Positions 1-30,719 of a stretch of DNA of 64,000 bases are shown piece by piece. The stretch is from Lingula anatina (taxonomy: Eukaryota > Animalia > Brachiopoda). The position numbers and the translations under genes are program-made. Each line of letters opens with the position of its first letter. Position 1 is the stretch's first letter. The notes under the pieces are model-generated. The model was not told where the DNA came from. It made no database searches and saw nothing but the letters and a program-made list of their open reading frames with translations. The DNA lies in NCBI GenBank assembly GCA_051362555.1, contig CM120643.1:11568644-11632643 (forward strand). Reading direction: 5' to 3'.

Positions 1-1067
1 CTACTTTTTGAAACTTGTGTCACATGACAGTCATAAAATTTAACTAATTGTTATGTGTGCAACACACTTGCTTGAGCAGTATTGTTTTTTTTTGCGATTT
101 TACATGTGGTCTAGCTTGGATACGACAATTGACAATTTTCATGAGTTCCGATCAAAAAGTGTTACGCTTGTTACGGCCAAAAGCCTTACCGCTTTTTGTA
201 CTTTTCAAATGCAAGATTATAAAAAAAATTGGTGTGTTTAGATTCTTGAACATCTTGGTCGTGGCGTGGTATATATTGCATGGATACTGCTCCAATATTT
301 CTTGAAAAAAATAACCTGATTTGTTCAGAATACCAATTTTTTACTCTAGTGTTATGGGTAAATGTACCATTTTGGCCTTTACCTTTTTCATGTTTAAATC
401 TAAAAAGACTTATCATGACAGTTGGTCATCATTTTTCTTCTCACCATGGTGGGTGGCTTTGGAGTGGTAACTTTGTTGTTAAAGTAAAGTGCTCAGTTTT
501 TTTGACTGGAAAATTTTGCCTCCACCCAGCATTTTCCATCATGGCGGTCTAACAGGAAGTTTGACTTCACAGTGTCTTTGGCATAGTTATTTTTAACTTA
601 TTTAGTCTTCTTTTTACATATATATGTTTTAATTCATATTAAACCTTTGAAAAAAGAACACACATGAATCCTGGTGCTTCTTAATTTAAAGTCTTAAGGT
701 TTTAAGTTCACCTAGGCTCCACCAATTACTTTACCTGTTATCTCACTACACATCTCTCTTTGAGTCAAGGTGTGTAAGACACACCTTATTGTGTAAGACA
801 CCTCTATAATTAAGGGGTACTTGCTTCTCTACTAAATTATACTTCACTACTTTGGCATGTTAGGTGGCAAGCTTGGATGTTTCAGTTCATTTTAAGAAAG
901 AAGCTTTGCCTTGGTGGTTACAAAAGAATAGAACTCTATTAAGGTTTATTCATTACTTGAAATTAAATATTTCATCTTGTAGTGTTGAAACAGAAATTCT
1001 CTCAAAATTGATAATGAATTTGACATGCATATCTTAACACTACTCAAGTTCTTTTTTTCTATTATAG

Positions 1068-1694
1068 ATATGGGAGAAGGCTGCAGTGAATATATGAATT
1101 ATGGTCAGGCTGGAAAAAATTAAAATATGTCAATGAAAAAAGGAGGTCAGTGTGTCTGGGGTAAGTTACTTTTGTCATAATGCCTAAGATGCATTAAACA
1201 TTCACTAACAACAGTACCCTTTTTAATTTTTTTTTCAAAATACAACAACCTTGGGCATTTTCCTTTTAGCAACCAGCCTCTCTGAAATCCCCTTTTTGTC
1301 CTGTCAGAAGAGTAGGAACCAGGGCGGATTTAAATAATTTCTTGTAATAAGTACAATTTCTTTCAATTTCTTGGGGTTATTAGCTTTTGATCATGAATCT
1401 TGATGTTCTATATAAATTAAGTTGTAAATTGTTCATTTATGTGGTGAACATTATTTCAGTCAAGTCATAACAAGACACATTAAACTTCACTGCGTAATTC
1501 CATAATGTCTACATGGATACTAGTAGTTCATAATGCTATTATTATGTTTTTTTTTTTCTAACCTACAGGTTTCTCTCTTTTCTGAGTGGCATGGCATTAG
1601 CAAGGCAGAAGAAAAGGCCCTGAAGAAATTCTCACTTGAGTTGTCCTTTTTGGAGAAGAAACTGGATAAGACTGGCCAACAGAGATTGCATTAA
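1068..1694 (+). pseudogene. Decayed two-exon coding remnant (1068-1160, 1569-1694), probably internal to an old dispersed repeat
   Basis: AG/GTAAG and polypyrimidine-CAG sites in phase 0. First exon reads IWEKAAVNI*IMVRLEKIKICQ*KKEVSVSG (both stops TGA); second reads VSLFSEWHGISKAEEKALKKFSLELSFLEKKLDKTGQQRLH*. No family recognised. Confidence 0.3.
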
Positions 1695-2815
1695 ATTAAT
1701 AGTGCTCCTTTATGACATTTTAAAATATTTTCAGTCACCTAACTGACTCTATACATTGCAAAAGTGGACATAAATTTTATGTTATTGTTACGTGGAAAAA
1801 AATTCAAAACCTATATATAAATTGTTGAGTGCCATGGTATAACAGTCTACCTGATTGCCAGTGAAATGTCTGTTTCAGTGAAATTTCTTTAAAGCAGTCA
1901 CTTACTGCTTACTTACCAGTTAATTTTTTCAGCTGTTACATTTTATAAATGTTCTTACTAAGTGTTGTCTTGATCTATAATAACCTTTTGAAAATCCCAT
2001 GTTTTTTATCCTATTTGTAAGAATTAACCACTTTATCTTCTAGGATTTTTTTTTTTTTCATTCGGCCCATTAGATTCTCAGACCTTGCTGGCCTGTAAGT
2101 GGAATAGTATCTGGCACAGACTGGTATCAGCAAGTCAGATAAAGAAGAATATAATTATTTCTATTTGCACGGTTGAAAAAAATGCCATCATAGACTGCAT
2201 AAAACTGGAAAACTGTAGCAACTTAATCATTCTTATGACTTCATTTATTACTGCTTATGTGTAAAATTTTTGTTTTTGTTCTTCTATTGATATAATAAAA
2301 TGGTTTTACTCACAGATGCTACTTTCATGAGTATAGAGTATAGAGTGCTTGAGTATAGAGTTGACTTAAAAGATTTTTTAAGTTAATATAGTAAATAATA
2401 GTTTGAAATTCAATATTCTCATCTTTATTTGTTTCAGTGAATACTAAAATTTCTGATATATTTTGTACATAAATATATTTATGAATGAATAAAAATTATT
2501 CTTAATGTATGGCACTGTGCACTTGTTTACCGACAAATATGAACAGTGTTAGTACGTGTCAAATAATCCTGAAAAAAAGGGAAATTTCCAAGATAAAGAA
2601 ATTTATAACGAGTATTCAGTAAACTGACGTGTCGTGGCATTGCCTCAACCTTGGATTAAAATTTTAATTAAATGCATTATAATATAAAAATTATACCGAG
2701 TGAGAGAAAAAATACTTCAAGAAATTTAAAACCAGACATAAAGCGTAGGCACTGTCACAATGTATATGTTTATGGGACCCAAGGGCAGGAGGGTCCAAAC
2801 GTTAATGTATTAATA
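1234..2815 (+). repeat. Dispersed repeat shared with 23846-24815
   Basis: 1234-1380 aligns with 23846-24003 (aaaatacaacaac.ttgggcatttt...aagtacaatttctt.caatttc.tggggtta); 2510-2815 aligns with 24575-24815 (ggcactg.cacaat.tat...tatgggacc..agg...ggagggtcca). Same orientation. Confidence 0.7.
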
Positions 2816-3041
2816 TTATGTCCTTTGGCAGTGAGGACAGACGTTCACTTGAATGTCATTTTCACAAACCACAGTTGGGACGTTTTCTTTTGACTTCTCC
2901 TTGGTGATTTTTCACCGGGTTGTGCCATAAAAAAGCCATCTATCACCGACTAAAAAAGCTCATGGCAACCATCCTCAGTCACCACCTTATAATCGCTTTC
3001 TATGATATCGTTCCCTTCCAGCACATCGTCCAAATAATTAC

Positions 3042-3090
3042 CTGTGAAAAAAATCGTCAGCATACTACAGCGGCAGCGGCGCTTTGACAT
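3042..3090 (-). CDS. Candidate first coding exon of a gene running off the left edge (MSKRRCRCSMLTIFFT)
   Basis: ATG at 3090, CAG|GTAATT donor at 3042/3041, CpG-rich upstream region with a GC box at ~3196. No second exon identified. Confidence 0.25.
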
Positions 3091-3346
3091 TACTGATCTC
3101 GAATTCTAACGCGAAATAACGCATATGAAATTTATCTCCAAGCTGAGGAGAGCGACGCAGACGAAACCTTGAGACCGGAGGCCCCCCGTAGCTAGCTCCG
3201 CCCACCGTAACAGACATCGGACAATAGAAAGGCTTGCGTGTAATCTCCTTCTGTTATAACTCCTTGGTTTTTACCATGTCTTTAAATACATGATGTACGT
3301 ACGGAGCCGTAATTGATAACGTACGCTCCGGGAACGTACATGTTTG

Positions 3347-4254
3347 TATGGGCGGCCAAAAGGGCAAAAAATCCTGTCGTCGATTCAGTTATGTTTCGTC
3401 GATTCACTGCCTTCCCATCGATTCAGTTTCAAGTTTAAACGATCCTGTCATAAATTCAACATCTACTTTCGTCAATTCAACTGTCAAACATTTCTCATCT
3501 ACGGTGTATTAAAACCAATGCCGTCACTATTTTCGTCGATCGTGTAACTATTCTCGTCGATCGTCTAATCTCGTCGATCGTCCAACTAATCTCGTCGATC
3601 GTGTAACTATTCTCATCGATCGTCTAATCTCGTCGATCGTGTAACTATTCTCATCGATCGTCTATTCTCGTCGATCGTCTCATCGATCGATCGCCAGAGG
3701 GCGCTGCGGTAGCACATTGGCCTATCACATGACTATCAAAATGGCAGACAACAAAATGATTGCTAGTGAAATAAGAACATTTTCTCAACAATTTCAATTT
3801 TAGTTGTTAATAATTAAAAGACATTCGGTTGTAGGGACATTATTTTCTAGTTGTGCTTAACTCTGACCATGGCTGGCCGAGTTAAAAATTACCACGTGAT
3901 TGACAGACAGAAGCACGTGTTGCTACCGCAGCGCCCTCTGGCGATCGATCGATGAGACGATCGATGAGAATAGTTACACGATCGACGAGATTAGACGATC
4001 GACGAGAATAGTTACACGATCGACGAAAACAGTTTGACGATCGACGAGATTAGTTACACGATCGACGAAAATAGTGACAGCATTGGTTTTAATACACCAT
4101 AGATGAGAAATGTTTGACAATTGAATTGACGAAAGTAGATGTTGAATTTATGCCAGGATCGTTTAAACTTGAAACTGAATCGATGGGAAGGCAGTGAATC
4201 GACGAAACATAACTGAATCGACGACATGAATTTTTGCCCTTTTGGCCGCCCATA
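3347..4254. mobile_element. Non-autonomous foldback DNA transposon, IS3EU-like termini
   Basis: ~340-370 bp inverted arms, TATGGGCGGCCAAAAGGGCAAAAA...TTTTTGCCCTTTTGGCCGCCCATA. Flanks tgtttg/cgtttg (6-bp TSD, one CpG-type mismatch). Internal tandem TCTCGTCGATCG units. TAY..RTA ends with a 6-bp TSD is the described IS3EU pattern. Confidence 0.8.
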
Positions 4255-5078
4255 CGTTTGTCCCGGGTCATTTAATTTTAATTTTTATATCGCTTTCCGT
4301 GTATTTTGTAGTGATTCAGTCATGGTATATTATATATAACGTAAGGATGTTTTTTCTGATAAATATTTTTTTAAAACTTGTAACTCTAGGGGCTTTACGT
4401 CATGGCTAATGATATGTAACGTATGTTCGCCAGAAAAAATTGCCAGAAAGTTTCGTCTTATAGTTCTATGGTCTTACCCAGGTACTTGGTGCAATAGGAA
4501 ACAGGTCTTTCTGTTGCTGACTGAAAATTATGTTGTGATTCCATGATAGTTTGACATTTATGATACAATATTTGTACCACGAATGGAAAATAGTTTATTT
4601 ATACATATTTTACTGTCGGTGGGGTGGATTTTCCCCGTGAAGTGACAAGCAAACTATAGTCGCTCAAAAACGATTATACAGAAGATTATCATTATTCTAA
4701 TTTTTACGACGTTATACTTGTAGGAGATAAATCAAAGAACGGAACCAGTGATGATTGAATTTTCAACGTGAGTAAAACTTTTCACAGCAGGACGTTTTGT
4801 ATTCGTGATAGTAGCGTACGTTCCTTTTCTAGGGCTAGACGATGACTTCATTTTTACAATTCATGTTTCTAGGAGAGTGAAACATTGACATATACTTCTA
4901 CATGTGGGGCCCTAAAATAATTAAGCATAGTTTGCAATCTGCGCCCTAAATATTTTAAAGAGCATGCCCGTGACCTCATTTGCACCTCACTACCTGACAT
5001 TTATAATAGGGTCCTGTCCTAGCGGGCAGTGAGTGTCAACATCTGCTCACGTCAGTCTGATGAAGGCCTATTAGGTTG

Positions 5079-5255
5079 GGCGTAGGCTAACGGTACGAGA
5101 CACCGGGTTCCTTTTTTGCCGGGAAAAGTCCGTTCTGGTTCAAATTTAAGCCAGGGGCACAAAGGTTTCATGTTAAAAAGTCCTTCTTTTTTAGAAAAAA
5201 AAAAAAAAAAAAAAAAAAAAACACACCACGATTGAAATTGCTGGCTACGGGGTAT
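5079..5255. mobile_element. MITE family (related copies ~37317-37480, ~62176-62370, 62805-62981)
   Basis: Shared core gaaaag(g)tccg.tctgg...aaaaggtccactt and the end aaattgctgg.t.c.gg. Confidence 0.55.
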
Positions 5256-6114
5256 ACCCCCCCCCCACCCCCCATTGAAGGGATAAATGACAAATGCAAT
5301 AAAAAAAATTGGACCACTATTGGTGATCAGCCATGGGGTATAATTACAATCAGTTACAATTACTCGTCGTCCACTCGGCTTCGCCTAGAAGCCAAGGTAC
5401 ACTCTTGTATATCGTATACAGTGGACCACTCGTGTTGATAATACCAAACGCACGGTCACATGCCTCTGCCACACCCTACAATGAACAGTTCTCTTCACTG
5501 CACCATATATAAGGTTTACTCTCACTATTTTCTCTGTCACTCTAGCTTTTATACTCGGCAACGTACGGTACAGCAGTATCTGACGATCGCACTCTTGGTT
5601 GCAGAACAAGGTAAACTATTTATAATTCTACAGAAATAGGGACATTTTTTGCTCAGTTTAATAATTACATGAAAACTTATGTGGCGAAGGGAGTCACCGG
5701 GATGTTTTGTCATGGGAATTTTTCAAGGCGATACGCTAACTTCTCCGGCTCTGGATCTCGATAACGTTCCTACCTTTCCTTTTTCTTACACACTATGGTA
5801 TGTACTTCGTGCAAATTTCAATATTATTTATGTATAGCTTATATTTTCATTGCATTTGCATTCAGTTTTCATTATTTCCAGTTTTTATGTCATACTTTTG
5901 TTTTTGTAACTTATTTCATTTAATTTCTTTTCTTTCAGCCTTTTCGGTTTGATGTCGGCAATAAACATAATCAAAACCGAATCAATCACTTGGCAGATTA
6001 CTTGACTAAGTGCAGGTAGGCCTACACCAGAGACAATCAACCTATACACCCTGTCGGCGATTGAGCGCTACACTTTGATCTGAGGCCCCATTTCTGACAG
6101 CCTAGTACCATTCA

Positions 6115-6340
6115 CTATTCAAGTAAGTTTTTCTTTTGGCTTTTATTTTCACATGCAATTTTTTAAACTTTATTTCTACACCAGTTTTAGCGCTGAACAA
6201 GCCCTTGGCAGCGAGGCCTTTTCGTTGGTAATTTCGTCATCTGTAATGTTAGAGATTTTACAGATGCCAACACTCACATTTTCTTTGTTTTGAATATGTC
6301 TTTTGTCCGTCACTTTTCCTTTACTTTCGCCACCACCAGA
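6115..6340 (-). mobile_element. LINE ORF1 fragment (same family as 13146-17569)
   Basis: QNKENVSVGICKISNITDDEITNEK matches the ORF1 segment ENL.VVICNI..ITDDEI..EK of the other copies. Confidence 0.75.
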
Positions 6341-7226
6341 TGTTATATAATATTTTGGCGACGAAGCCGATGCTGAAAGTCGCAAAGTCTAGTACATGAA
6401 GATGCAACAGCTTTTTTTCAATCCTCAAAGACTTGACTTCTGCCTCTATTGTTAGTCTGTCCGCGGCTGTTGGAATGGTTTGGATTTTTCTTGTGCGCCT
6501 TGGCCACCCCTTTCCACTGGTAAAATTTCTAAATGTTAATTTTAATTTTCCGCTCTTTATTATCCCAATCCATTACGTTAATTGACGGGATCCCTGTGGC
6601 CTACTTTTTATTTATACGTTGTAACATGTTGAGCTGTCTCTGCTAATCTAACGATACGTTCTATTCCTTTGTTTTTCGAGGTAGGCTTTCTGCCTTTTGT
6701 TAAAAGTATTACTACATTTATAATACTCCAGTAATAGAGACATTTTTTTTTTTTTTTGCTCTATTTAATAATTACATGAAAACTGTGACGAAGGGAGTCA
6801 CCGGAATACTCGACACGGGGAAAGTAAAGACAATTATGCGATAAGGCTAATAAATTATAATAACGCAATGAGAATTAACTAAAAAGAAAGATGTAATTAT
6901 TAAAGGTGAGGGCACAGGGGGGGGGGGGAGGCATGCGGTTTCTAGCACATTTACTAGTGTTTCAGTCACATTCTCACAAATGCAAGCTAAATCTATTCAA
7001 TTGAAGACTGGTGTGACTGCGTCACTATTTAGATTGTTGGTATTTTGATGGTTAAACAGGGTTTGTTTTATTTTTCTCATGTTCCATTGTAAGCCAGCCG
7101 GTCCTCTTGCTATTCGGTTGTTCTGTGTGATTTTTACGTTTAAAAGTAGATGGTCGCTACCGACGTCTTCGTATACATAACAGCCCTATATTTTTTAGTA
7201 AAGTTGAGTCGCGACCCAAAATTTGT

Positions 7227-8309
7227 TCACTTAAAGGCAACATGGTGGATAGTTTCGCCATCTATATTAACTTTGTAGATGGTGGCGACTGCTTCCGCTA
7301 TATCTTTGCAGATGTCACTTTCATTTGTTTGTATTTTTAGGCGTTTTGATGTAATTTTGATAAGTATTTTCGTTAGGCATATTGCCAGTTTTATTGATTC
7401 GCTCACATTTCTCTTCTTTGCGTTGTCTATTGCAGTGCGCTTTTGTTCTGAGTTAATTTCTTTTTTGTATACCTTGCATCCTTTGAAAGATGCAGGGTGT
7501 TTTTCATTGCAATTGGCGCAGTTGCAGCCGCTTTCCGAGCATTTTTTGTGACTGTGCGCCCCTCCACAGTTCTTGCAAGTCTCGGGTGACTCGCATTGTT
7601 CGGCTACGTGCCCGAACTTTTGGCAATTGCAGCATTGTTTAACCGTGGTTGTGACTGGTTTGTAGTCACGCACCTTATATTTATGGTAGCCTAGTATTAG
7701 CCCTTTTTGCAGCAATTCTGTCTTTTGATGTTTGTTTTCGCATGTTATTTTCACTTTGTTTATTTCTGTGCCAGTTTTTGCACTGAACATGCGCTTGGCT
7801 ATGAGCCCTTTTTCGTTCGTTATTTCGTTTTCTGTAATATTTTGCGAGATGTTGCATATGACAACAGTCAACACTCAGATTTTCTTTGTCTTGTAAATTC
7901 TGTTTGCCTGCCACTCTCCTTAGGCCCACCTCATTTAGTCGACTTTCTTTTGCTTTCAGGGAAAGTAGGCTATTTGCCGAAGTTTTGTCTTTCACAAAGA
8001 TGAGTGTGTGTCCCCTTTTGGTTTTGATTGTTTTAGTGATGCTTACATCGCCAAGCATCTTTTCGAATTTGATGGGATTGTCAGTTAGGTGTTTGGGCAA
8101 GTTTTCAAATAGGATGGGTTTTGGATAGGTGCCCTTTTGATTTTCCGGTTTCTTTTTGTTTTTGGTTTGTACTTGAGTCCACTCCATTTCCTCGCTATCG
8201 CAGCCAGCCTCCTCCCCGCCCCGTGAAGGGTCGTTTTCTGGGCTATTGTTGGCGATTTTGTCGGAATCGCCTCCTACTGCCCTGTTCTTTTCCGTTAATT
8301 TGGCCCTTT
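7227..8309 (-). pseudogene. Gag-like ORF1 (3' part) of LINE copy A, frameshifted
   Basis: QCCNCQKFGHVAEQC..TCKNCGGAHSHKKC..CANCNEKHPASFKGC zinc knuckles. Confidence 0.85.
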
Positions 8310-8907
8310 TAGTCGCTTACCTACACTGGTCTATCGTTTCATTGTGTGAAAAGCTCCAGTGGCCAGACAATTTTCACGGTGCCATGAAGATAAACAGTTA
8401 AAAAATATCCACAATAAATTCGGCAACCGTAGGATGCGCCAACATATAGATAATTGCGATAGTATTTATGCCAAAACATCAAAATGAATAGCCCTGCCGT
8501 TCCAATCGGCAATCCTCGACTGTCGAGTGCGGAGACATCCGAGTAGTTCCAAGTGCTGCCGTTCTACCCTTTAAACCAATCAAAGCAACGGAAAGGGGTC
8601 ACGTGATCACTTGACCTACATCTGATCGATGTAAACAATGAATTTCCATGCGAAGCTTGCACATTTAATAGATGATTCCCATACGTTGTTTCAATAAAAA
8701 AATACGTCCTAGGTTTTTAAAATCGATGTCAATATCGAGAGAAAGATTTAAATAGTTGGAAAATACGTGTATTTTAGGTGTATTTATATAATTGGCTAAA
8801 TGATGGCGTGAATTCACGGCAAAAAGGTATGTAGTATAGCCCGTAGACTGTGCACTGTACCACTTCTACAATCGCACACAGGTCACACTATTACCCAATA
8901 TAGTGAT

Positions 8908-9075
8908 CAGGGGCGGATCCAGAGATATTTTCTGAGAGTCTTCCAAATTATATTTGTTGATCCATCCTCTACTTTTGACCGTCTTCCGACAGAAAAAATT
9001 AGATACCCGTCAATGTAAACTTGAAAATCTGACCGTCTTCCGGAAGACCCAGAAGACGGCCTAAATCCGCCCCTG
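8908..9075. mobile_element. hAT-like MITE with 5-bp TSD (related copies 33259-33359, ~47231-47370, ~24004-24300)
   Basis: TIR CAGGGGCGGAT..ATCCGCCCCTG, TSD gtgat. Confidence 0.85.
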
Positions 9076-9549
9076 GTGATCATATAATCACTTGCATGTA
9101 TGTTCAGTAATGTTACATTGAATGCATTTTAAATTCTCAGTTGTGTTAAAGCGCATATAATCACTTAAAATTATTTGACTCAATATTTTACACTGATAAA
9201 TAGTATAAATCCATGTGTAGAGTTACAAACTAGGTATCATGCGGACTGTCTGTTTATGAAGCTGGAAAGTGCTCAAAAAATTATTTCAAAAATATATAAG
9301 TGCTTCACTAGGTAGAATAATTGAGTTTTTTATGTTCAAGTTTATCTTTAAATTGCAGAGGTACAATTTTTAAAGAAGTTTAATTGTTGCAACTAATTGC
9401 AGCATTGTCTAGTAATAACAGCATATTAAAAGAAATAACAGCTCACATTTAACAAGGCTTTTATGATATATATAACATATTTTTCCAACTTAATTATTTC
9501 AACTGTGAAATTATAACTTTCTACATTTCTTGTGCATATCTGAAAAAGA

Positions 9550-10015
9550 ATAATAAAATGCCAGGTACACTTAAAGTTTTGCAAATGGATTTTAGGTCTA
9601 AGAAAGCAGGCTAGCAATACCATTTTTAGAGCTAAGCTTGGCAGTTACCCTATTATTTCAACTATAACTAAACCTGTCTAAAGATTAGTCTTAGACTGGA
9701 ACAACTACTAGTAGATAATAGAACTGTAAATCAGGTGCACAGTCTTGAGCAAGATACAAAGGGAAACACATGGACAGAATCTATCCGAAGATAACAACCT
9801 ACCAAAGAAATTATATCAAATAGAAAACCTTTTAGAAATATTGAACATAAAAATCGAAAAACACTTCTGGCAGGAATTAAATAGCTCAATCTCAAACAAA
9901 TTAAGGACATACAAAACAATAAAAAAAATATTATGAATGTGAAAATTACATCAAAATGAGTGTCTCCCCATTAAATATCAAAACACTTGCAAAAATTAGA
10001 CTAAGTGACCACAAC
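9550..10015 (+). mobile_element. RTEX-like LINE C-terminal fragment
   Basis: VHLKFCKWILGLRKQASNTIFRAKLGSYPI ... NKLRTYKTIKK..ECENYIK..KTLAKIRLSDHN resembles the post-RT region of RTEX/CR1-group ORF2. Confidence 0.7.
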
Positions 10016-12104
10016 TTTTTTTTTTTTACAAATAATGCAGATAGCTGGCAGCACTGGTGACTTTGATATACCAAACCCTGAGACTGATCTCAATTTCTTG
10101 GGAGATGGACCTTGTATTTTGGGAAGAGTGCAACTGGTTGATGGTTCTGTAAAAGAAGCAAAATAACATTTTACTTTTCATACCATATATATTAGTGCAT
10201 TATAATGTGCAGATACTGACTACTACAGAAACAACTTTAACGTTGGATAAATATCCAAGTGGGTGTAACAAAGATATGTAAAAATAGTAATGTGCTCAAA
10301 ATTCAGTTATAAAAACAGTTGCCCTGTATAAATAAAAAGACAACATAGAATACATATTTCAAATAAAAACATCTGGATACCTGGATACACAAATGATTTA
10401 GCAAATACAGAGCAGACCGCAAATCCTTGATTGTTGCAAGTGCAATTGTATATACAATCACTATGATTTAACTATAAAATAAATAAATAATAATGAAATA
10501 AGATAAGACAGTCGCATGTGAGTTTATCACATGATTGACACCAAGTGATATTAACAACTATAATTACATATATCCTCATGATTCAAAGGGCATAGGGTAG
10601 GTATAGGATTCAATGTATTAGTGGCTCAGCATGTTCCTTTTATGAGGAACTAAGCTGTAACAAACTATAGGCAAATGAGACCCACTGTTTAATATTTGTT
10701 GCAACTAAGACAAATAAATCAAGTTTAAAGATCTAATAATTAATAGGGAGCCCACTAGCATTCTGCTGCCCAGATTAATATCAGATGCCTTGAATAAAAT
10801 TGACTCTTCTCTTTAAACTGAACTACATCTACCAGTCACCCTACTCATTATAATTATTCCTTAATTGATACTGTTTGTCAACGTATTTCTTTATTGATAC
10901 TATTTATGTATACCTTTACTGATTTTATTCATAAGGGAAAGTTACAAGGATTATTCCTAACAGTCCTAATTAAATTAATCACATTGCAGCTTGTTCTGTG
11001 AAAAGCTATCCTACTTTTTCTGGCTCACAAGATACAGTAAATATTCCCTAAAATACATTCTCATTGAAGTTGGGCTTAGCCTATACATATTTATATTCAC
11101 TAATGGTTGCACATGTGCAGCAATGTAACTGGGGGGGAGGAACACTCCACAAATAACATAAAAGATTCTACCATGATACTTAAGCCTTTGTCTCATAAAA
11201 TCCCACCATAACATTTGTTTGTATATCTTGTTGTGTGAAGCCTTACATTATTTTGTGTAAATGCAATGCTAATATGGATGAACTAATAATGAGATGTTAA
11301 TCATGGCAAGAACATACAGCTAGCTTAGGCTGTATTCCCAGAGCTTTTAGATTGATCTGTCCCCGTGGGGAGTCTCACTAGATTACTGTCAGATAATCCG
11401 GCTTAAATGTCCGTCCCGCCTACTACAAGCTGTAAGGGGGTATTTAACTTTCGTGTCCGCCCCACTGACAGCTGTTTAGCGTGAACCCCTAAAGTAGATA
11501 TATCTAATTTCTGGAAATGGGGTCTTATTCAACAGAGAATGAGTTGTTTCATATCTTAAAACCTCTAAGTATTTACAAATAAAATAATAATAACACTAAT
11601 AAACTTTTTTATCATTTTCTTCTTTTTTCTTTCTTTCATATCACTTTTATCAGTCACATATTGTTATGTAACATCAGCCACGTACAATGTAAACATCACA
11701 CGATCAGGGCTGATTTAAAAACAAATTACAATATGTTGACATACCTTCTTCAGCAGGACTGCCTTGTTTCTCAGCTTTCTCATACTTCTTTGCCGCCTGA
11801 GATAGCCCCTTCTTGTTAGTTAGCTTTCTGTAGCAAGAAAAGTGACATCGTGGTTTGGCTTCCAAATCGTCGAATCCTTTATCTAAATCCGTACTGTACG
11901 GATCCACTGAACAGCAGCGGCTTCTCTGCTGCCAAATTTCCGCCATTGTTTCGCTGCGACTCTAAAATTTTCCCAGCGAACACGTGTGATGGTATCTAGA
12001 GTCTCTTAATTAGCTACCTTCTTCTATGTGCATGCAACACGAAAGATGAGAATTTGGCGAAGATTTCGCGTCTCCCTCCTCAGACTCTTCATTACAGCCG
12101 TCAT
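10016..12104 (-). pseudogene. Academ transposase N-terminal exons (12104-11745, 10146-~10016), frameshifted and truncated
   Basis: CCMH..RWENFRVAAKQW..CHFSCYRKLTNKK, donor G|GTATGT, phase-matched acceptor ttacag|AA giving EPSTS..PKKLRS..VLPAICIICKK. Family assignment is from recalled motif resemblance plus the element termini. Confidence 0.65.
11326..11490. mobile_element. Partial copy of the PIF/Harbinger-like MITE at 39660-39864 (another copy ~26905-27160)
   Basis: Shared ctcactagattactgtcag...ccggcttaaatgtc.gtcccgcctact..aagctgtaaggggg. Confidence 0.7.
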
Positions 12105-13559
12105 GCTGCTTTGTTTACATGGCATGGCCTGGTGGGAAGGTGACGTGACCCCTTTTCCGTTGCTTTGATTGGTTAATCTGATCTGAATCTGATTAAAAGG
12201 CTCGAACGGCGGGGCTATTCATTTTGATGTTTCGGCATAAATACTACCGCAATTATCTATATGTTGCCGCACCTCTCGGTTGCCGAATTTATTGTGGATA
12301 TTCTTTTACTGTTTATCTTAATGCACCGTGAAAATTGTTTGGCCACATCACATATTGAAGGAAAGAGCTTTTCTAAACGCTTTTATGCATATCAGGTAGG
12401 GGACTATTTTAGCGGCCTTCTTTTTAGCTTTCTTGGAGAGGTTTTCACCCTCCCTATTCACTCTTACAGGGCTGGTTTGGTCTGGGACCAGAGGACCTGT
12501 CTTCCTCTTTTCTGCTTTTCTTTTGTTTTTGTCACTGTTGTGCATATCCTCTTCAGGGACCCCCTTTTCTCCGGTCATCGGTTGACCGGAGCCGCTCCTT
12601 TCCTTTCTGGGGTCCTGAAAAGGGCCATCAAGAGCTGGTACACGGCCCTGCTCTCCTTCCGGCACCTTCGTGCTTTCAGCCATCTCAGCAGGTTCACGGA
12701 CCTGCTTTGCTACCTGGTTCTCCTCACCCCTGGGAGAGCTTTTCAACCCACTGGCAGGTACACGGTCCTGCCCCTCTGCTGACTTTCTCCTCGCCCCTTG
12801 GAGAGTCTTCCAACTGACTGGCAGGTACACGGCCCTGCCCTTCTACTGACTTCTCCACGCCCCTTGGAGAGTCATCTGTTCCACAGGCAAGTACACGGCC
12901 CTGCCTTGCATCCGATCCCTCATACTCACCTTCGCCACGGTCGGCAAGCAGTGCTCGCCGGAGCTGTGGCGGTAGAGAAGCTAGAACCTCCCGAAGGTGG
13001 TTCAGCATCTCAAGTTCTTCGTTTTGTGTTGGATACAACAGCCTTTGCGTAAGACATTATTGGTATTAGCTTGGTATGTTGAATGTTCAATCGACCTAAT
13101 GAATCAAAGTGATAGATGGAATGAAGAAATCTGGAATGATCTGCCTGTAGTATAAGTTTGCAACGGCGAAGCCGTTGCGGGAAAGTTACGAGGTCTCATG
13201 CGTCGAGATTCAAGAGCCTCTTTCAATCCCCGAGTTCTTGTATATTTTCTTCTGCCTCTATTGTTGTTGCACGTCTGTCCGTGGTGTTATTTGGGTGGCT
13301 TGGATTTTTTTCCTTTCCTCTTACGCTGGCCGCCCCTCCAGCTTGTGTATTTTTTCCAGATGAATCCTTTTTTTTTCCTTGTTTCAGCTATGATTATTCC
13401 AATTCCTTCACCTTGTCTCCGGTCGTCGGGTGACCAGATTCTTTCCTTAATTTTGAATTGGTGTTGCCCTTTTCAGGGCCAGTTGTATTTTCTCCGGTCG
13501 TTGGGAGACCGAAGCCGCCAAGTTTTTCGTGCACGATCTGTATCATTATTTATATAAGT

Positions 13560-15777
13560 CAAGGGTAGTATTTTTGCCTGGTTTGCTTACTATTATGTTT
13601 TTCAGCTTTAGTTCTTTAAATAGGAGGTTATTTTCAAACCTGCTGATTGTTTTTGTGCCCAGAAAAATAGTCTGCTTGATATATATTCAATGTTAACCAG
13701 CCAGTTGTAATTCGAGTACTCATAGGAAGTTTGAGTGCTATGCGTAGCGCTCTATTTTGAATTTTTTGTAGGTCGTTGAGCCTTGTTTTTTTGGTAGCCG
13801 CTAGTATGACCGCACCGTATTTGAGTATGGGTCGAATGAATGATTTGTATAATTTTAGGAGGCAGGCACTCGAAGACCCCCAGTTTGTACCTGTCAGTCT
13901 GATAAGAAGGCCAGTTCTTTTCCTGGCTCTTTTCACTATATTGTCAACGTGTTTTTTAAATGATAGTTTCCTATCAAAGGTGATTCCTAGCAGTGTTACT
14001 TCCTCACATGTTTCTAAACGGTCACCAAAAAGTGTGAGGTTGAGCTTAGGTTGTTGATTTGATTTTGAAAAGATGATTAATTGTGTTTTTTTTTTTGGTG
14101 TTTAGTTAAATCCGCCTTAGAGAGCACCATAGTTCGAGATCCTTTATCACACCAGTCAGTCTGGTTTCTATGCTTTTGACATTTTTGCATGATGTCCACA
14201 TGCCTAAATCGTCTGCAAATTGAGAGACCTCGGTGTAGTATCTTGGGTTTATTGAAGCAACGGGCTGATTACAGACCCCTGAGGCATGCCAGCATTGAGA
14301 CTTGCATATTCGGATGCCTCACCTTTGATTCTGACCTTGATCTTTATGTCTTTCAAAAAAGATGACAGCAAGCGGACAATCTTAACTGGCAGGTTACTAT
14401 GTGCTAATTTGTACCTTAACCTAGCGTGCCAAACTGAGTCAAAAGCCTTCTCCACGTCAAGCATCATAGCGCCCGTAACCCAGCCTTTGTTCATTGCCAG
14501 TTGTGCACTTTCAGCTAGTCTTAGCACATGTTCCATTCCTTCCTTCTTGCTCATGTACGCTCTTTGCCATTTATTGAAGTATTGGTCATTTTCAAGTTTT
14601 TCTTTTATTCTGTTTGCGATTATTCTCTCGAATAGTTTGCTTAGGCAGCTTAGCAGGCTGATCGGTCGATAATTCGTTGTTATTTTGTGATCTTTCTCAG
14701 GTTTGGGTATCATTATTCCAGTTGCTTCTTTCCATATTGTGGGGAAATATCCCAACTGCAGACAGTTGTTATAAATGTCGCATAGTTTGTTTTTTAGACA
14801 TTCAGGTAGTTGTACATGATTTTATAGAAAGGGCCTTCTTTCTTTTGAGCCAGGTGTCTTAGTTTTCTTTTCAGTTTTATAAGCTTAAGGGTGTCCTCGC
14901 TTACTCTCCATACATTTTCTCGTATCTTTGTTTTTGGGCATGCGGTTTCAAGTGCATTTATTAGTGTCTCGGTCACATTCTCACAAGCTTCGTCTATTTC
15001 AGTGGTGGTAAGTGTGACTGCGTCGCTATTTAGGTTTTTAGAAATTAGATGGTCAAACAGTGGTTGGTTTATTTTTCTTGTATTCCGTCGTAAGACGGTT
15101 GGTGCTCTTGCTATTCGGTTATTCTGTATGATTTTTACGTGTAGAGGTAGATAGTCGCTACCACCATCTTCACCTACATAACAGTCCGCTATTTTCGAGT
15201 AAAGTTGAGTCGTGACAAAAGCCATGTCCAGAGTATCAGTGTTGCCGTTGGTGGCCATATGTGTTGTTTCGCCCTCATCGTTAAGATTGATCAGATCTAA
15301 TTCTTCACTTATGTCAAAAAGAACGTTCCCGGTATTGTTTTTTTTTTTTTTTTGCAACCGAAGAAAGCATGTTTACTGTTGAAATCACCTAAAAAGAGGC
15401 AATGTTGGTATTGATCAGCAAAGTGCTTAAATACTGCTTTGTCTAATGTTATATGCGGTGGATTATATAATGAGACTATTACCGTTTTTCTTTGATTTAT
15501 TGTAGTCTCTATTCCCAGAACTTCAGCTGTGAGGTTGCTGGTGTTGATAGTTTGGAACTCTGTCTTTCTTAACGAGTATTGCCACTCTGCCCCCGTGTGC
15601 ATCCCTGTCCTTGCGCAACATCTGATAGCCGTTTACTGACATTTTTGTCCTCTCACTCAACTTAGTCTCATTTATGCATACGATGTCGGGTTTATGCTCT
15701 ACCAAATATTCAACTAAAAGTTGTTTTTTGGATTTCAGACTGTTTATGTTGATATGCAACAGATGTACCGCCATCAT
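13560..15777 (-). pseudogene. LINE ORF2 (APE endonuclease + reverse transcriptase), disrupted
   Basis: HININSL..PDIVCINETKL, GDFNSKH, TLDMAF, GSDYLP; NYRPISLLSCLSKLFERII, LDVEKAFDSVWH, GMPQGSVISP, FADD, WGSSS..LYKSFIRPILKYG. Confidence 0.92.
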
Positions 15778-15814
15778 TTAGGTGGAGGGGTTGATACGTG
15801 TTTGTGTGTCCGTT

Positions 15815-17514
15815 TTACTTAAAAGCAACGTGATGGATAGTTTCACCATCTATGTTGACCTTATAAGTGGTAGCTACAGTTTCTGCTATGTCTTTACAGA
15901 TGTCGCTCTCGTTTGCCTGTATCTTTAGTCTTTTTGATGTCATTTTGATAAGTAATTTGGCTAGGCATATTGCCAATTTGATTGATTCAGCAACATTCCC
16001 TTTTTTAGCATTGTCTATTGATATGCATTTTTGTTCGGTGTTCATTTCTTTTTTATACACCTTACATCCTTTGAAAGATGCCGGGTGTTCTTCTTTACAA
16101 TTGGCACATTTGCGGGTGCTTTCTTTGCACTCCTTATAACTGTGCGCCCCACCACAGTTTTTGCAAGTCTCGGCTGACTTGCAGTGTTCGGCTACGTGCC
16201 CGAACTGTTGACACTTGTAGCACTGTTGCACTGGTGCTGTGACTGGCTTGTAGTCACGAATTTTGTATTTTTGATAACCCAGCAACAAACCGTTCTCAAT
16301 CAAGTCTTTCTTTTGATTTTTGTTTTCACACGTAATTTTCACCTTGTTAATTTCGCTTCCTGTTTAAGCGCTGAACATACGCTTAGCTAACAGAACTTTT
16401 TCTTTTCTGATTTCATCGTCTGTTATTGAAACTGCTATGTTGCAGATGACCACGCACAAATTCTCTTTATTTTGTTTTTTGTTCGCTACTTTTCTTATGC
16501 CAACCTCATTTAGTTGGCTTTCTTTATTTTTCAGGGCAAGTAGCTTCTCAGCTGAAACCTCATCTTTGGGAAAGATAAGGGTGTTACCTTTGTTTTCACA
16601 ATTTTAGTGATATCGGCATCACCAAGCACCTTCTTTAATTTCAGTGGATTGTCATCCAGGTGCCTAGGCAAATTTTCTAACATAATGGGCCTAGGTCTTT
16701 CTGCTTTTTTGTTTTCTTGTCCGCTTTTTTTAGTTTCAGGGTGGACAATGGTGCACTCTGATTCCTCGGAGTTTCCCTCCTCGCCCCGTGGAGGGTCGTC
16801 TGCTGGAGCCTTCTCGGTGATTTTGCGGAAATCGCCTCCCACGGTCTCCACCTTCTCATTCAGTTTGTCACTTTTCTCGGCCTTTTTCCTTGCTTTCTTT
16901 GAGAGATTATCTCCCTCCTTCTCCCCTCTAATGGGGCTGGTTTGGTCACCGACCAGAGGACCTGTCTTCCTCTTTTCCCCTTTTTTCTTTCTTTGCTCAC
17001 TAACTGCCCAATCCATTTTGCTGTCCCCGGTCATCGAGAGACCGGGTGTCTTGCCCTTCTTTGGATGGGCTTTGCCCTCTTCAGGGTCTATCATTTCTCT
17101 GGTCATCGGGAGACCAGAGATATCTGCTGCCTTTTTGTGGCCCTGAAAAGGACCACTGAGAGCTGGTACACGGCCCTGCTCTGTGTTTTGAATCTCCTCA
17201 CCCCTTGGAGAATTAACCAACCGATTTGCAAGTACACGTCCCTACTCTGTATCTAAATTCTCCTCACCACTGGGAGAAATTGTACTTGTATCTTTGCTTG
17301 CAGGTACACGGCCCTGCTCCGACACCTGCTTCTCCTCGCCCTTGGGAGAGCAATCCTGTTCATACTTACCTTTGCCACAGGGATCAGCTAGCAGAGCTTG
17401 CCGAAGCTGTGGTGGTAGAGATGCCAGTACCTCCCTAAGGTGGTTCAACATCTCTACCTCCACGTCCTTAAAAGGACGTTTTGTGTTGGATACAACAGCC
17501 TTTGCGTACGACAT
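15815..17514 (-). pseudogene. LINE ORF1 (nucleic-acid chaperone, 3x CCHC), disrupted
   Basis: MSYAKAVVSNTK start, EQGRVPA..SPRGEE repeats, QCYKCQQFGHVAEHC..CKNCGGAH..C..CANCKEEHPASFKGC; split over several reading frames. Confidence 0.88.
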
Positions 17515-17569
17515 TATTGGTATTAGCTTGGATGAATGGAATGATCGAATCAATTCATGCTTCTGAATC

Positions 17570-17700
17570 GGAATGATCTGCCGAAGGTTGCCTTGTTTTA
17601 TATACTCACATATCCGACGCCAACGATCTTCAAGACCAAACCTTACCTTGATTGGCCAAAACGACCACTTATGAGTGTAGAGCGATATGATTGGACAAGT
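17570..17700 (-). promoter_or_regulatory. Pol II core promoter: two CCAAT boxes, TATA box, TCATTC initiator (histone-gene-like)
   Basis: Minus strand: CCAAT at 17694-17690 and 17655-17651, TATATAAAA at 17604-17596, Inr A at 17574, exactly 30 nt downstream of the TATA start. Confidence 0.7.
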
Positions 17701-18074
17701 CCTCAATTCTTAGGGTTCTGACACATTTCAGCTATCTTGCACTTTCATTTTTCTTAGGTAAGGAAGATGACTTCAAGAACGTCACAGATGTTCGATCCAA
17801 ATTGGTGGGAATTAAGTATATTTCTTTTGCAAATTTTGATTTCTTTCAGAAATCCACTAAACGTGATGATACATACAGAAATATGCCATTCCTTCACTCT
17901 GCCTCGGATTCAATGCTGCATATTTTAGCACACCTGTCCCACATACAGTTATACAAATTCAATGATTTTAATAAAAATACATCCAATGAGGTGCACATGA
18001 AATAAGATGGAAATTTGGGTCATCCAATCACCAAATAGACCGCCTTATTACAAATCTCCCTAGCATATACCCCA

Positions 18075-18850
18075 AATCATTTTTTGCTTTCTTAACGAGT
18101 ATAGCCACCCCGACCCCGTGTGTATCCCTGTCCTTGCATAACATCTGATACATGTAGCCATTCACTGACTTTTTTGTTTACTCACTCATCTTAGTATCGT
18201 TTATGCATACGATGTCAGGTTTATGCTCTACTAAATATTCAACTAATAGTTTCTTGGATTTAAGACCGTTTATGTTGATATGACTGTTTATGTTTATGTT
18301 GATATCAGGTGTGCCGATATCTATAGGAGGTGTGGTTGATGAGTGTAAGTGTCTGCACCTGTTTTACTTAAAGGCAACGTGGTGGATAGTTTCACCATCT
18401 GCTGACTTTATAAGTGGTGGCTTTTTTATTTGTTGATTCAGTTGCCCTTGGGCCCATTCTGTAATTCAGACACAGTCTTATGATGTGCATGTCTTCAGTG
18501 CTGCTTAAGTGCAGTTTACCTTTCTCATGGAAAATAGTTACTGAGCCACCTTCATACACATATGAGTACTTTGAACAATTTTGCAATTGACAATTGCCAC
18601 TATAACAACTTATTATGCTGTGAATCTGCTCATCCCCAATGCTGTCTTCCTCTTGTAGGTTTGATGTTCAGACTCCACTGTGATCTGGACAAGAGTTATC
18701 TTCCCCTCTTATTCTGAGCAGTATGGCAGAGCTTGTTACCAGTGTAAACACTGTATAATGTTTTGTATAAGCTTCCCTCTTTCTTTTGAGCTAGTCTTCT
18801 CATTTTTCTTTTTAATTTGATTAGTTCGTGTTTTTTTGCTGACTCTCCAA
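18075..18850 (-). mobile_element. Degraded fragments of the same LINE family (EN start, ORF1 end, ORF2 linker)
   Basis: 18075-18310 aligns with 15570-15780; 18365-18420 with the ORF1 end (ATTYKV..DGETIHHVAFK); 18755-18850 with 14810-14910. Confidence 0.75.
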
Positions 18851-18935: not shown

Positions 18936-21655
18936 AATAAGTTTGTCGGTGAAGCCGAGGAGGGAAGTTACGAGGACCAAAGTCTTGTGACAGTGGCCTC
19001 TTTCAACCCTCATGCTTTTGGGACACAGCAGGAGAAAAATAAATAAATAAATAAATAAATAAATAAATATATAGATAAATAATAAATAAAGTAAATAATC
19101 AGAAAGAAAGAAAAAAATACAATTAATGGTAAGAAGTTGTTCATGAAATCCATATTCCACTTGCAGGCATTGTGCCCATTTGTATTTGTCTAGAGCAGTA
19201 TTGCTGTGATTTCTCTGGATGAGTAATTTTTGGATGTGTAACGCTTTCATTATGAGGCTGGAGGAGTGTTTCGATACCCAGATGAAAAAGTCTGTTGGAT
19301 ATTGGTTTGAGGTTTGCTGTGTTACGTAGATGCTCAATTTTGGTACCATAGGGCATTTTTAAGGCTATGCAGAGGGCTTTGTTTTGGACTTTCTGCATCT
19401 CCACTTGTCATGTCTTGTTTGTGGTAGCAAATATCACTGCTCCATATTTGAATATGGGGCATATGAATGCCTTGTATTCTCTAATCAAGGTTGAGCTTGA
19501 GGTACCCCAGCTGGTGCCTCTCCGTCTTACTAGGAGATTGGTCCTCTGCCTTGCTTTGGTTGTTATGTTTCTTGTATGTTTTTTAAATGTCAATATTTGG
19601 TCTAGGGTGATTCCGAGTAAGGTGGCTTCCTTGACTTGTTTGATTTTTTCGCCAAACAGGTGAACTTCAGGCTGTATTTTCCTTTTTTTATTATGGAAAA
19701 CCACTGAGTTTTTTACGTGTTTAGTTTGATTCACCACAAAGAGCACCAGAGTTACAATAAGTCTGAGTGCTGCGTTTAGTCTTATTTCCAGTGCTTTTGT
19801 ACTTTTGGCACTGGTCCATATTCCGAGATCATCAGCAAATTGTGATGCTTCCACTTTGTGGGAAGGGTGTATGGGGAGGTCATTCACATATAATAAGAAA
19901 AGAAGAGGGCTGAGGACTGACCCTTGCGGTGTGCCTGCATTCAGCCTGACAGGATGGGAGACATTTGTTCCTACTCTAACTTTTATTTCTCTGTCATTGA
20001 GGAAAGAAGATAGCAGTCTTATGAGTTTGTTCGGAATGCAGTAATGCCCTAATTTATACTTGAGTCCATCATGCCACATGCAACGGATGCTTTTTCTACA
20101 TCAAGCAGGATTGTTCCTGTGGTCCACTGTTTATTTATAGCAAGTTGGGCTGCCTCAACTAATCTGACTTTGTGCTTGATTCCTTCTTTTTTTTCCAGGT
20201 ACGCTCTTTGCCATTTGTTGAAGGCTCTTGTATGTGTTTTGGACTGTAAGTGCTTTTATGAAGTCAAATGGTACTTTGCCTCGGCTTCGGTGCTGCATCT
20301 GTTGTGTGCTGGGAAGCGCGTGAAGTGCTGGATCCCCTTATTTGTGAAAACAGGATAGACTGAAAAAATGAAACAGAAATAAATAACAAAATTAGCATTT
20401 GAATTACTACTACATAGTTATACATGATTTTACAAAAAGGGCTTTTTTGTTTTGAGCTACGTGTCTTAATCTTATTTTCAGTTTTATAAGCTTTTGGGTG
20501 TCCTCACTCTCCATATATTTTCTCCATATATAATCTTTTTTTCTTTGGGCATGCAGTTTCTAGTGCATTTACATGCTAAATCTATTCCATTGGAGGCTGG
20601 TGTGACTGTGTCACTATTTAGGTTGTTTATAATTTGATGGTTTAACAAGGTTTGGTTTATTTTATTGATGTTCCATTGTAAGCAGATTGCTGTTCAGTTA
20701 TTCTGTATGGTTTTTGTGTAGAGGTACATAACAGTCCGTTTAAGCCTAGTCATGACAAAAGCTACATCCAGAGTATCAGTATTGCCGTCACTGGCCATAT
20801 GTGTTCTTTTGCCCTCATCATTAAGATTAATCAGGTCTTGCTTTTCACTAATGTCGACACAAACCTTTTTGGTATTTTTTTTTTTTTTTTTTTTTTTTTT
20901 TGCAACCGAAAAAAAAAAAAAAAGTTTACTGAAATGGAGTATAGCCACTCCACCTCCATACGCATGCATCTCTGTCCCTACATCTGAAGGCTGCTCACTG
21001 TCATTTGTTTTTTCACTCAAATTAGTCTTGTTTGTGTATACAATGTCAGGATTGCACTCTACCAAATGTTCAACAACTAATAGTTTTTTTGTATTTAAAA
21101 CTGTTTATGTTGATATGCATCAGGTGTGCTGACATCTTTAGGTTGTGTGGTCAATGCATGTTAATGTGTTGCAACTGTTTTACTTATCTTGGCAGAATCC
21201 TCCAAGTAGACCAATCATGGACTGTTATTTTTTTTTTGTGTGTGTTGGTATTAAGTTTGGTTGATTCAATTGCACTTGGGCTCAGTCTGTAATTCAGGCA
21301 CTGTCTTAGGATGTGCATGTCTTCAGTGTTGCTAAGTGCAGTTTACCCAAGGAATATAGTTATAGAGCCACCTTTACGTCTTCCTCTTTTTTTTATTGTT
21401 TTGCTTGGTGTTTCACCCTCTTTAGGATTGATTTTTCCCTCTTCAGGGCCTCCAGTCATTGGGAGACCAGAGATGTTTCCAGCATTAATTTTTGGGGCCC
21501 TGAAAAGGACCATCAAGAGTGCTGCGTATGGTGACTCCCTGTCCCTTTGAGTGCCCCTAGCTCCACTTGCAGGTAAATGGCCCTGCTCCACAACATGCAT
21601 CTCCTCGCCCTTGGAAGAGCCTTCCTTAACCTAGTAGCAGGTACTGTACACTGCC
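18936..21655 (-). mobile_element. Divergent, 5'-truncated LINE copy C of the same family
   Basis: ORF1 remnants 21180-21655, EN 20720-21140, RT 19400-20225 (GTPQGSVLSPLLFLLYVNDLP, QFADDL). 3' end 18936-19010 is homologous to 13151-13230. Confidence 0.85.
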
Positions 21656-21732: not shown

Positions 21733-21926
21733 CAGCACTGGTGTGGATTTTGTTGTTTCCCATCTTGCTTGGTCATTACTTTTTGTTCAGCTTAAGTTAA
21801 AAAAAAAATCCAAACTTTGGCTGATATTCTGGGTGTCAAAGATGATACTTTTTATTTTAGTCTCATTCCATTTTTCAGAAAATACTTTAAAAATTTTCTT
21901 TTAGCAGCATCCCAAAAGCAAAAAAG

Positions 21927-22232
21927 AACATTCAGGGTATCACCAAACCAGCCATCCATTATTTGGCTCGCCATGGTGGTGTCAAGCATATGCTGTAAGC
22001 GTATCTCTGGACTTAACTGTGAAGAGACCCGTGGTGTCCTGAAGGTGTTCCGCAAGAATGTCATCCGGACTCCATCACCCACACTGAGAATACCAAGAAG
22101 ACTGTCACTGCCTATGGTGTATTCTATGCTTTGAAATGACAAGGCCATACTCTGTATAAATTTGTCAGTTAGGCAGATCTATCTCATTAGAAACATAAGG
22201 TCCCTTTAGGATGACAAAACGTAAAAGAAAAG
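21927..22232 (+). pseudogene. H4: Histone H4 pseudogene (5'-truncated, frameshifted) with degenerate 3' stem-loop and downstream purine element
   Basis: NIQGITKPAIHYLARHGGVK/KRISGLNCEETRGVLKVFRKNVIR/DSITHTENTK/KTVTAYGVFYALK*QGHTLYKFVS* (stop 22172). GGTCCCTTTAGGATG at 22199-22213; AAAAGAAAAG at 22223-22232. Confidence 0.92.
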
Positions 22233-25159: not shown

Positions 25160-25300
25160 AAATTCAAATCGAGGCTAAATCTCAAACTGATTCTCATTGG
25201 ACCATTTTTGCGTGGCTCAAAGAGTCGTGTTTTTTGATTGGTTACCTTGCTGGACATTTAATTTTAAACTATTCGAAATTAGGTTTCAAAACACAAGTTC
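25160..25300 (+). promoter_or_regulatory. UBE2C promoter with inverted CCAAT boxes and clustered CHR elements
   Basis: ATTGG at 25196 and 25237; TTTAAA 25263, TTCGAA 25272, TTCAAA 25285 (reverse TTTGAA), just upstream of the ATG. Confidence 0.6.
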
Positions 25301-30686: not shown

Positions 30687-30719
30687 GAACATGTGGAACA
30701 CTTAACGGGCACATTTATC

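Follow-up and report, generated by a model that had tools for sequence, protein, structure and literature searches.

The window is the 64,000-nucleotide stretch of Lingula anatina DNA analysed here. It contains several copies of one LINE and a second element inserted into one of them.

13555..17582, minus strand: LINE copy B, near full length and decayed, with three CCHC knuckles in ORF1 and an APE endonuclease and reverse transcriptase (RT) in ORF2.
12407..13145, minus strand: LINE copy A, 5' part.
6930..8309, minus strand: piece D, the continuation of copy A past the inserted element.
8310..12406, no strand assigned: 4.1-kb insertion between A and D, with terminal inverted repeats TAGTC...GACTA.
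About 19100..21640, minus strand: LINE copy C, internally deleted.

All LINE pieces (A, B, C, and D) lie on the minus strand, and the stack is enclosed by a plus-strand host transcript. A and D are a single LINE copy interrupted by the 4.1-kb element. ORF2 matches Pfam RVT_1 (E 8.5e-22) and Exo_endo_phos (E 7.5e-07), and ORF1 is closest to PRE_C2HC clusters (score 0.93), which serves as a lead. With an APE endonuclease and RT in ORF2 and CCHC knuckles in ORF1, the element is an APE-type non-LTR retrotransposon of Jockey/I-like kind. Protein searches and metagenome scans with ORF1 returned no matches, and viral scans returned none. The element at 8310-12406 has inverted repeats of about 145 nt and a likely 3-nt duplication, and 63 frames gave no Pfam match of note. 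Its TAGTC...GACTA ends look Academ-like. Two tandem arrays rich in CGATCG, inverted relative to each other and with 17-21-nt units, are found at 3346-4255. Exons of a sodium/proton exchanger lie on the plus strand at 30687-31000 and 60951-61190 (the second with Pfam Na_H_Exchanger, E 7e-15). A match to an H2A motif at 61140 was rejected as exchanger exon.

Short RNA hairpins are placed as follows along the LINE copies.

17139..17154, minus strand: flagged 16-mer of copy B, GGTCCTTTTCAGGGCC, read as ORF1 codons G-P-F-Q-G.
21496..21511, minus strand: flagged 16-mer of copy C, GGTCCTTTTCAGGGCC.
12611..12626, minus strand: flagged 16-mer of copy A, GGCCCTTTTCAGGACC, with a C.A mismatch at stem pair 3.
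17463..17478, minus strand: SL2, hairpin CGTCCT-TTTA-AGGACG of copy B, with a CAAAA 5' flank.
17098..17118, minus strand: inner hairpin GGTC-N7-GACC of copy B, also found at 12570-12590, 21451-21471, 17026-17046, 13493-13513, and 13418-13438.
17075..17086, minus strand: downstream cassette CCCT-GAAG-AGGG of copy B, also found at 12547-12558, 21437-21448, and 13467-13478.

The first-pass annotation had read the three 16-mers as histone 3' stem-loops conserved inside ORF1. A pattern search confirmed all three at these sites on the LINE sense strand. The B and C 16-mers are fully paired with one G.U, and A carries one C.A. All have G-C at stem position 2 and U at loop positions 1 and 3. With at most one mismatch allowed, the histone pattern matches the window four times against 0.56 expected, a count reached in 0/100 shuffles; the fourth match (13465-13480) is on the plus strand. 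On the sense strand the 16-mer arose in 0/4000 shuffles of the ORF1 pieces and in 2/4000 of the whole element, and its chance expectation is about 0.02 per 64-kb window. Copies A, B, and C share one ancestor, and their 16-mers are not independent.

The 16-mer is 437 nt (B) and 532 nt (A) from the presumed start, in agreement with the first estimates. The A-rich 5' flank was correctly reported to be absent at the flagged sites (CAGT, TGAT). The surroundings had been described as otherwise variable, and this does not hold: the adjoining cassettes are equally conserved when A, B, and C columns are compared. Identical columns number 14/16 in the 16-mer, 11/12 in the downstream cassette, and 15/21 in the inner hairpin, and 7/20 and 1/11 in the spacers. 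The Rfam Histone3 model, suggested as a check, scored copy B at 20.4 bits, below its gathering score of 34, and did not match A or C.

SL2 was overlooked in the earlier reading of the window. It ends 11 nt ahead of an in-frame ATG (17452), a spacing like that between hairpin and ATG in the relatives described below. SL2 folds in every context tried, with a predicted pairing of about 1. Its first pair is C-G instead of G-C, and Rfam Histone3 gave no match for it. On the sense strand of the window, the pattern of SLBP key positions matches only SL2 and the three flagged 16-mers. SL2 is known from copy B only; copy A has a 14-nt deletion there, and copy C is broken off before it.

A promoter-like stretch adjoins the 5' end of copy B, and a histone relic lies near copy C.

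17583..18080, no strand assigned: promoter-like multicopy stretch with two CCAAT boxes on each strand.
21921..22163, plus strand: histone H4 pseudogene.
22199-22213: decayed stem-loop-like stretch by the H4 relic, starting GGTCC.
21447..21640, plus strand: exon of a polyadenylated host RNA that crosses copy C in antisense orientation.

Copy B starts 22 nt past a TATA box that itself follows two CCAAT boxes. The sequence TATATAAAA is found at 17604, 29 nt ahead of TCATTC at the start of B; we take CATTC to be a cap motif. CCAAT boxes number 4 in 515 nt against 0.27 expected. The stretch before B is multicopy in two DNA runs, where one contig has depths of 704 and 961, whereas contigs identical to B reach 63-66 and 22-40. 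The stretch at 17583-18080 is a putative histone promoter. Comparison with the histone promoters of the relatives' host gave no useful match (best E 0.025). A second CCAAT pair, 41 nt apart, is located on the minus strand at 25200-25241.

A tblastn search of the window with the four histones of relative locus L002 found H4 only. The H4 relic is about 280 nt from copy C. Neither B nor A/D has a histone ORF after it in the window. No histone came up when Pfam was run on 81 of the 111 frames in 1-6200 and on 80 frames elsewhere, but these scans missed the H4 relic as well. Spliced host RNA joins the copy C exon to the H4 relic (from 21905, plus strand). The acceptor of this exon comes from the reverse of the downstream cassette, and the upstream exon seemingly ends at 6120. 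The host RNA is about 200 reads deep in RNA run X11 and has stops in all three frames.

Relatives were found by a scan with an RT alignment, which gave 10 loci; more copies were taken from further stretches of the same contigs. Seven loci (L002-L008, 45-47% RT identity) are in tandem H2A/H2B/H4/H3 arrays of another animal. No histones were seen at the other three (L001, L009, and L010), of which L009 and L010 are short. Every intact 3' tail (9/9) is followed by a histone ATG on the same strand, 40-102 nt on: H4 four times, H2B four times, and H2A once. One copy without a tail precedes H3. A further relative (L015) is opposite in orientation to H4. Cap-region sequence is duplicated at the junctions. 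RT sequences are 86-100% alike between copies. Two copies, one at H2B and one at H4, share identical RT stretches, evidence of recent movement of the family. The relatives are independent copies at one kind of site. Junction sequences at H4, H2B, H2A, and H3 differ and hold no single endonuclease target. Site choice therefore looks positional rather than sequence-specific.

The relatives' host contigs sit in three bacterial bins. The bacterial genome records concerned (G001-G003, loci L002-L017) contain animal histone-array contigs as host contamination. The bins probably caught these contigs because the arrays are multicopy, so they say nothing about what fraction of copies genome-wide is in arrays. 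Where the relatives sit within the array is free of that bias. A second LINE family (L011 8400-13750, 32-33% RT identity) is found at an H2B start. Since its 5' part has no such hairpin, insertion there does not depend on one. Derivatives of the histone-array family that retain ORF1 only, with ORF2 deleted, occur at H2A and H3 starts (L011 1505-3975 and L012 1660-3900). L016 and G001:C2 11200-23720 are made up of short units in tandem, about 360 nt and 520 nt long, and every unit holds both a histone stem-loop and a downstream element; the 3 kb examined of this array holds no ORF of at least 96 residues.

A quick RT tree was made from 126 rows. It held no reference clade members, and two short and seven duplicate matches were omitted. 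The window RT falls within a 96-row clade (support 99). The histone-array family falls outside this clade at an open fork (85), and beyond it lie named insect elements; the trait is therefore either old or twice arisen. L001 is inside the window's clade and comprises two decayed copies without 5' ends, with neither histones nor hairpin in 6.7 kb.

Leaders of the relatives were searched with a query that excluded the hairpin itself, and seven were found. All seven contain a histone-type hairpin, GGYYCT-TNTT-AGRRCC, which is non-coding and lies 9-14 nt before the ORF1 ATG. Its variants are GGTTCT-TATT-AGAACC (3), GGTTCT-TTTT-AGAACC (2), and GGCTCT-TCTT-AGGGCC (2). Six aligned leaders are paired in 36/36 cells, with one wobble and one double (compensatory) change; the latter is a single event, and 35/500 shuffles score as high. 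RNAalifold recovers the hairpin unprompted, as one arm of a junction with flanks predicted to be paired, and its predicted pairing probability is about 1. Among 5000 shuffles of the first 500 nt, none has the strict pattern and 10-17 have the looser pattern of key positions. The looser pattern is also present on antisense strands, and in two loci those matches are fully paired.

Loop positions 1 and 3 of the leader hairpin are invariant U, and position 2 is A, U, or C. Such variation is compatible with SLBP, which is described as needing loop positions L1 and L3 and tolerating L2C; the latter weakens 3'hExo instead (PMC4604434). It is also described as wanting adenines that flank the stem (PMC10388802). 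The relatives' hairpin is without 5' flanking adenines, and the L007 leader scores 15.6 bits with Rfam Histone3, below the gathering score of 34. The true histone stem-loops of the relatives' host score 30.6-30.7 bits, also below gathering, so this cut-off is strict. These host stem-loops (e.g., L002 1201) have no adenines directly before the stem (ACACCC, ACATCC) and have a pyrimidine-rich downstream element. Since genuine host stem-loops fail both the Rfam cut-off and the A-rich flank, both weigh less against the LINE hairpins. No match to the host's conserved downstream element was found in the relatives.

We tentatively favor, at somewhat less than even probability, a role for the histone-type hairpins near the LINE 5' end as candidate SLBP docking sites on the full-length RNA, not as 3' ends. 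SL2 would likely be the main site, and the flagged 16-mer likely a secondary one, predicted to switch with a longer helix. The histone-mRNA mimicry first suggested for the 16-mer is strongly and independently supported for the lineage, in which relatives sit at histone starts and carry a non-coding hairpin of the histone type. As a candidate, the flagged 16-mer itself is weaker: it is predicted to be sequestered, and in the A subfamily it carries a mismatch. By extension from the relatives, the window's own family may also target histone genes.

In the proposed mechanism, the element would land at a histone start site, and insertion at the cap site would put it under the host histone promoter. 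The histone-type hairpin just before ORF1 would bind SLBP and, having no downstream element, would remain uncut. Bound SLBP could hold the LINE particle near histone loci. It could also gate ORF1 translation, under S-phase or oocyte control. The flagged 16-mer may be a second copy able to switch with the long helix.

A possible but on balance unlikely alternative is that the flagged 16-mer serves just as the 5' arm in a longer helix; it would be an inverted copy of a GAAA/GAAG hairpin cassette, with an incidental resemblance to the histone motif. ORF1 would then be under general selection for short RNA hairpins, whatever the leader hairpin of the relatives does. The 16-mer is nearly the reverse complement of a cassette found 63-68 nt further on. 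A 10-bp helix between the two, enclosing the inner hairpin, is predicted, and A, B, and C share it as their consensus fold. The helix is paired in 30/30 cells; because it is invariant, it has no covariation support, which counts against this reading. The inner hairpin keeps 42/42 pairs. When 90 nt of downstream sequence are included, the short flagged hairpin has a predicted probability of at most 0.02 in A, B, and C; local folding of B gives about 0.5. Forcing the short hairpin costs 0.7-3.4 kcal/mol in B, 5.5-9.1 in C, and 9.9-16.5 in A. Reverse-complemented, the cassette at 13480-13465 also fits the histone pattern with one mismatch. Taken alone, the context of the flagged site would make the histone look probably a matter of chance.

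General selection for hairpins fits the 5' part of ORF1, which is a series of short palindromic cassettes. Short hairpins were counted against synonymous-codon shuffles. Copy B has 10 against 3.75 (0/150) and copy A 7 against 2.35 (1/150). The 3' parts of B and D each have 4 against 0.8 (0/150 in both), and the middle of D has 2 against 0.5 (16/150). The excess is several-fold in 4/5 ORF1 pieces, and four ORF2 pieces show no enrichment. The antisense strand is also enriched because the cassettes are near-perfect palindromes. A synonymous-site comparison, proposed in the first-pass annotation, bears the conservation out: between B and D, 19/20 sites are kept in stems against 70/122 outside (p 0.0008), and in the reverse comparison 19/21 against 70/121 (p 0.003), with p from 0.0004 to 0.08 across 8 settings. 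Changes in the other cassettes (three types, 103 pairs) give G.U 7 times and A.C once (p 0.035), an indication of sense-strand RNA structure. Against the long-helix explanation, a second A-type sequence is changed in the 3' arm (12549). The explanation also leaves SL2 unaccounted for, as well as the relatives' non-coding leader motif and histone-start positions. ORF1 of the relatives is not hairpin-rich.

Minus-strand ORF1 fragments of a further related subfamily, at 13250-13530 and 6090-6570, carry the inner hairpin and a GAAA cassette. The loops of ORF1 hairpins are CG-rich, at 0.08-0.11 per nt against 0.02-0.03 elsewhere (15815-17514, 12407-13058, and 7227-8309), and this richness is absent from the histone-array relatives. 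A hammerhead reading of CTGAAGA was rejected, as no GAAA follows stem II by eye and Rfam gave no match.

It is improbable that the hairpins were taken up passively from histone 3' ends by array-dwelling elements and do nothing. Histone sequence is carried along at 5' junctions, as in L014 with its scrambled H2B start, and the H4 relic with its decayed GGTCC-starting stem-loop adjoins copy C in the window. However, the relatives' hairpin differs from the host's GGCCTT-TTTC-AAGGCC at several stem positions and is still fully paired. It lacks the histone flank, and it is kept in 7/7 leaders whose other columns are only 57% invariant.

Still less probable is that SLBP and the U7 snRNP cut the LINE RNA past the stem and that the resulting short poly(A)-minus RNA attenuates the element. 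The ACAAA reported after the stem in copy B is present, and a purine run follows the 16-mer in copy A; both speak for such cutting. Purine motifs are nevertheless commonplace, in 17-58% of 20-nt windows of ORF1. RNA reads were examined for A-type sense transcripts, of which 28 were found in run X12, with about 6% of the run sampled; read strand was set by spliced reads of run X11 from the same study. Run X14 contributed 2 reads, and runs X10 and X17 contributed none. They reveal a second, transcribed A-type sequence that differs from A at 9/104 letters and has the same C.A mismatch. It is a paralogue or a divergent allele. Its sense poly(A) reads traverse the 16-mer at a depth of 19-22. A 3'-end pile-up just after the stem had been expected from the histone interpretation; the only pile is at 12562, with 5/15 molecules, 49 nt past the stem. 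This read-through, together with relatives that lack the downstream element of their host, speaks against the U7-type cleavage first raised for the 16-mer. Poly(A)-minus ends are invisible to poly(A)-selected reads, which therefore give only a partial test of U7 cutting.

The least probable reading, voiced as a caveat in the first-pass annotation, is a conserved GPFQG peptide whose codons produce the hairpin incidentally. In its favor, the 16-mer is read in frame, and most repeat units have lengths divisible by three. Against it, copy A encodes GPFQD, third positions are kept, and the peptide does not explain the relatives' hairpin because that hairpin is non-coding, which largely refutes it for the lineage.

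SLBP CLIP in HeLa cells found only histone mRNAs, as reported in section 16 of PMC4604434, and this counts against SLBP docking on the LINE RNA. Use of SLBP by a retrotransposon, if true, would be the first parasite RNA target of this protein in the literature covered. A LINE at four histone starts raises the question of how an element with an APE endonuclease finds a position without a common sequence; the hairpin suggests an answer that can be tested directly. Should SLBP not bind, LINEs at histone starts would still be a source of histone-array turnover and a possible route to multicopy insertion. The literature covered describes no LINE with a histone stem-loop and none at histone starts; subscription and Repbase reports were mostly outside this coverage, and a prior description is possible.

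The LINE hairpins work like the histone 3' stem-loop family (RF00032) and are not members of it. The histone stem-loop is described with a G-C pair at stem position 2, a U-A closing pair, and U at loop positions 1 and 3 (bioRxiv 10.64898/2026.10.14.759114; PMC4604434). The LINE hairpins share these three features, along with a 6-bp stem, a 4-nt loop, and a pyrimidine-rich 5' arm. They lie in ORF1 or the leader near the RNA 5' end, whereas the histone stem-loop lies about 25-60 nt after the stop codon, at the mRNA 3' end. Unlike the histone stem-loop, they come without evidence of an RNA end, and their flanks are not A-rich except at SL2. A histone stem-loop inside a polyadenylated RNA has a parallel in the long poly(A) H2AFX mRNA, whose internal stem-loop SLBP can contact (PMC4604434, section 16). 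H2AFX differs in being a histone gene with the hairpin in its 3' UTR.

Drosophila 297 reportedly inserts at the H3 TATA box. Tf, P, Mutator, and mPing prefer sites upstream of protein-coding genes (PMC6719617). Like all of these, the relatives insert at or beside polymerase II start regions. Unlike the relatives, these are LTR or DNA elements, and none is described as carrying a histone RNA signal.

Target-specific non-LTR elements include Keno in U2 snRNA genes and R2 in 28S rDNA, with further cases in the Tx1 clade (PMC4494074). The relatives resemble Keno and R2 in inserting repeatedly at fixed places in a tandem gene family, on the same strand, and they probably rely on host gene transcription as well. 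In contrast, they target the starts of four protein-coding genes, each with a different sequence. Their ORF1 is Jockey/I-like, and their RNA carries the target genes' own RNA signal.

The I factor localisation signal (ILS) is a LINE stem-loop read by Egl-BicD, which also reads gurken mRNA (PMC13186709). The hairpins described here would be a similar case, in which a LINE hairpin looks like a signal in host mRNA and would draw in the factor that reads it. They differ from the ILS in that the reader would be SLBP and in that the signal would be linked to the insertion site.
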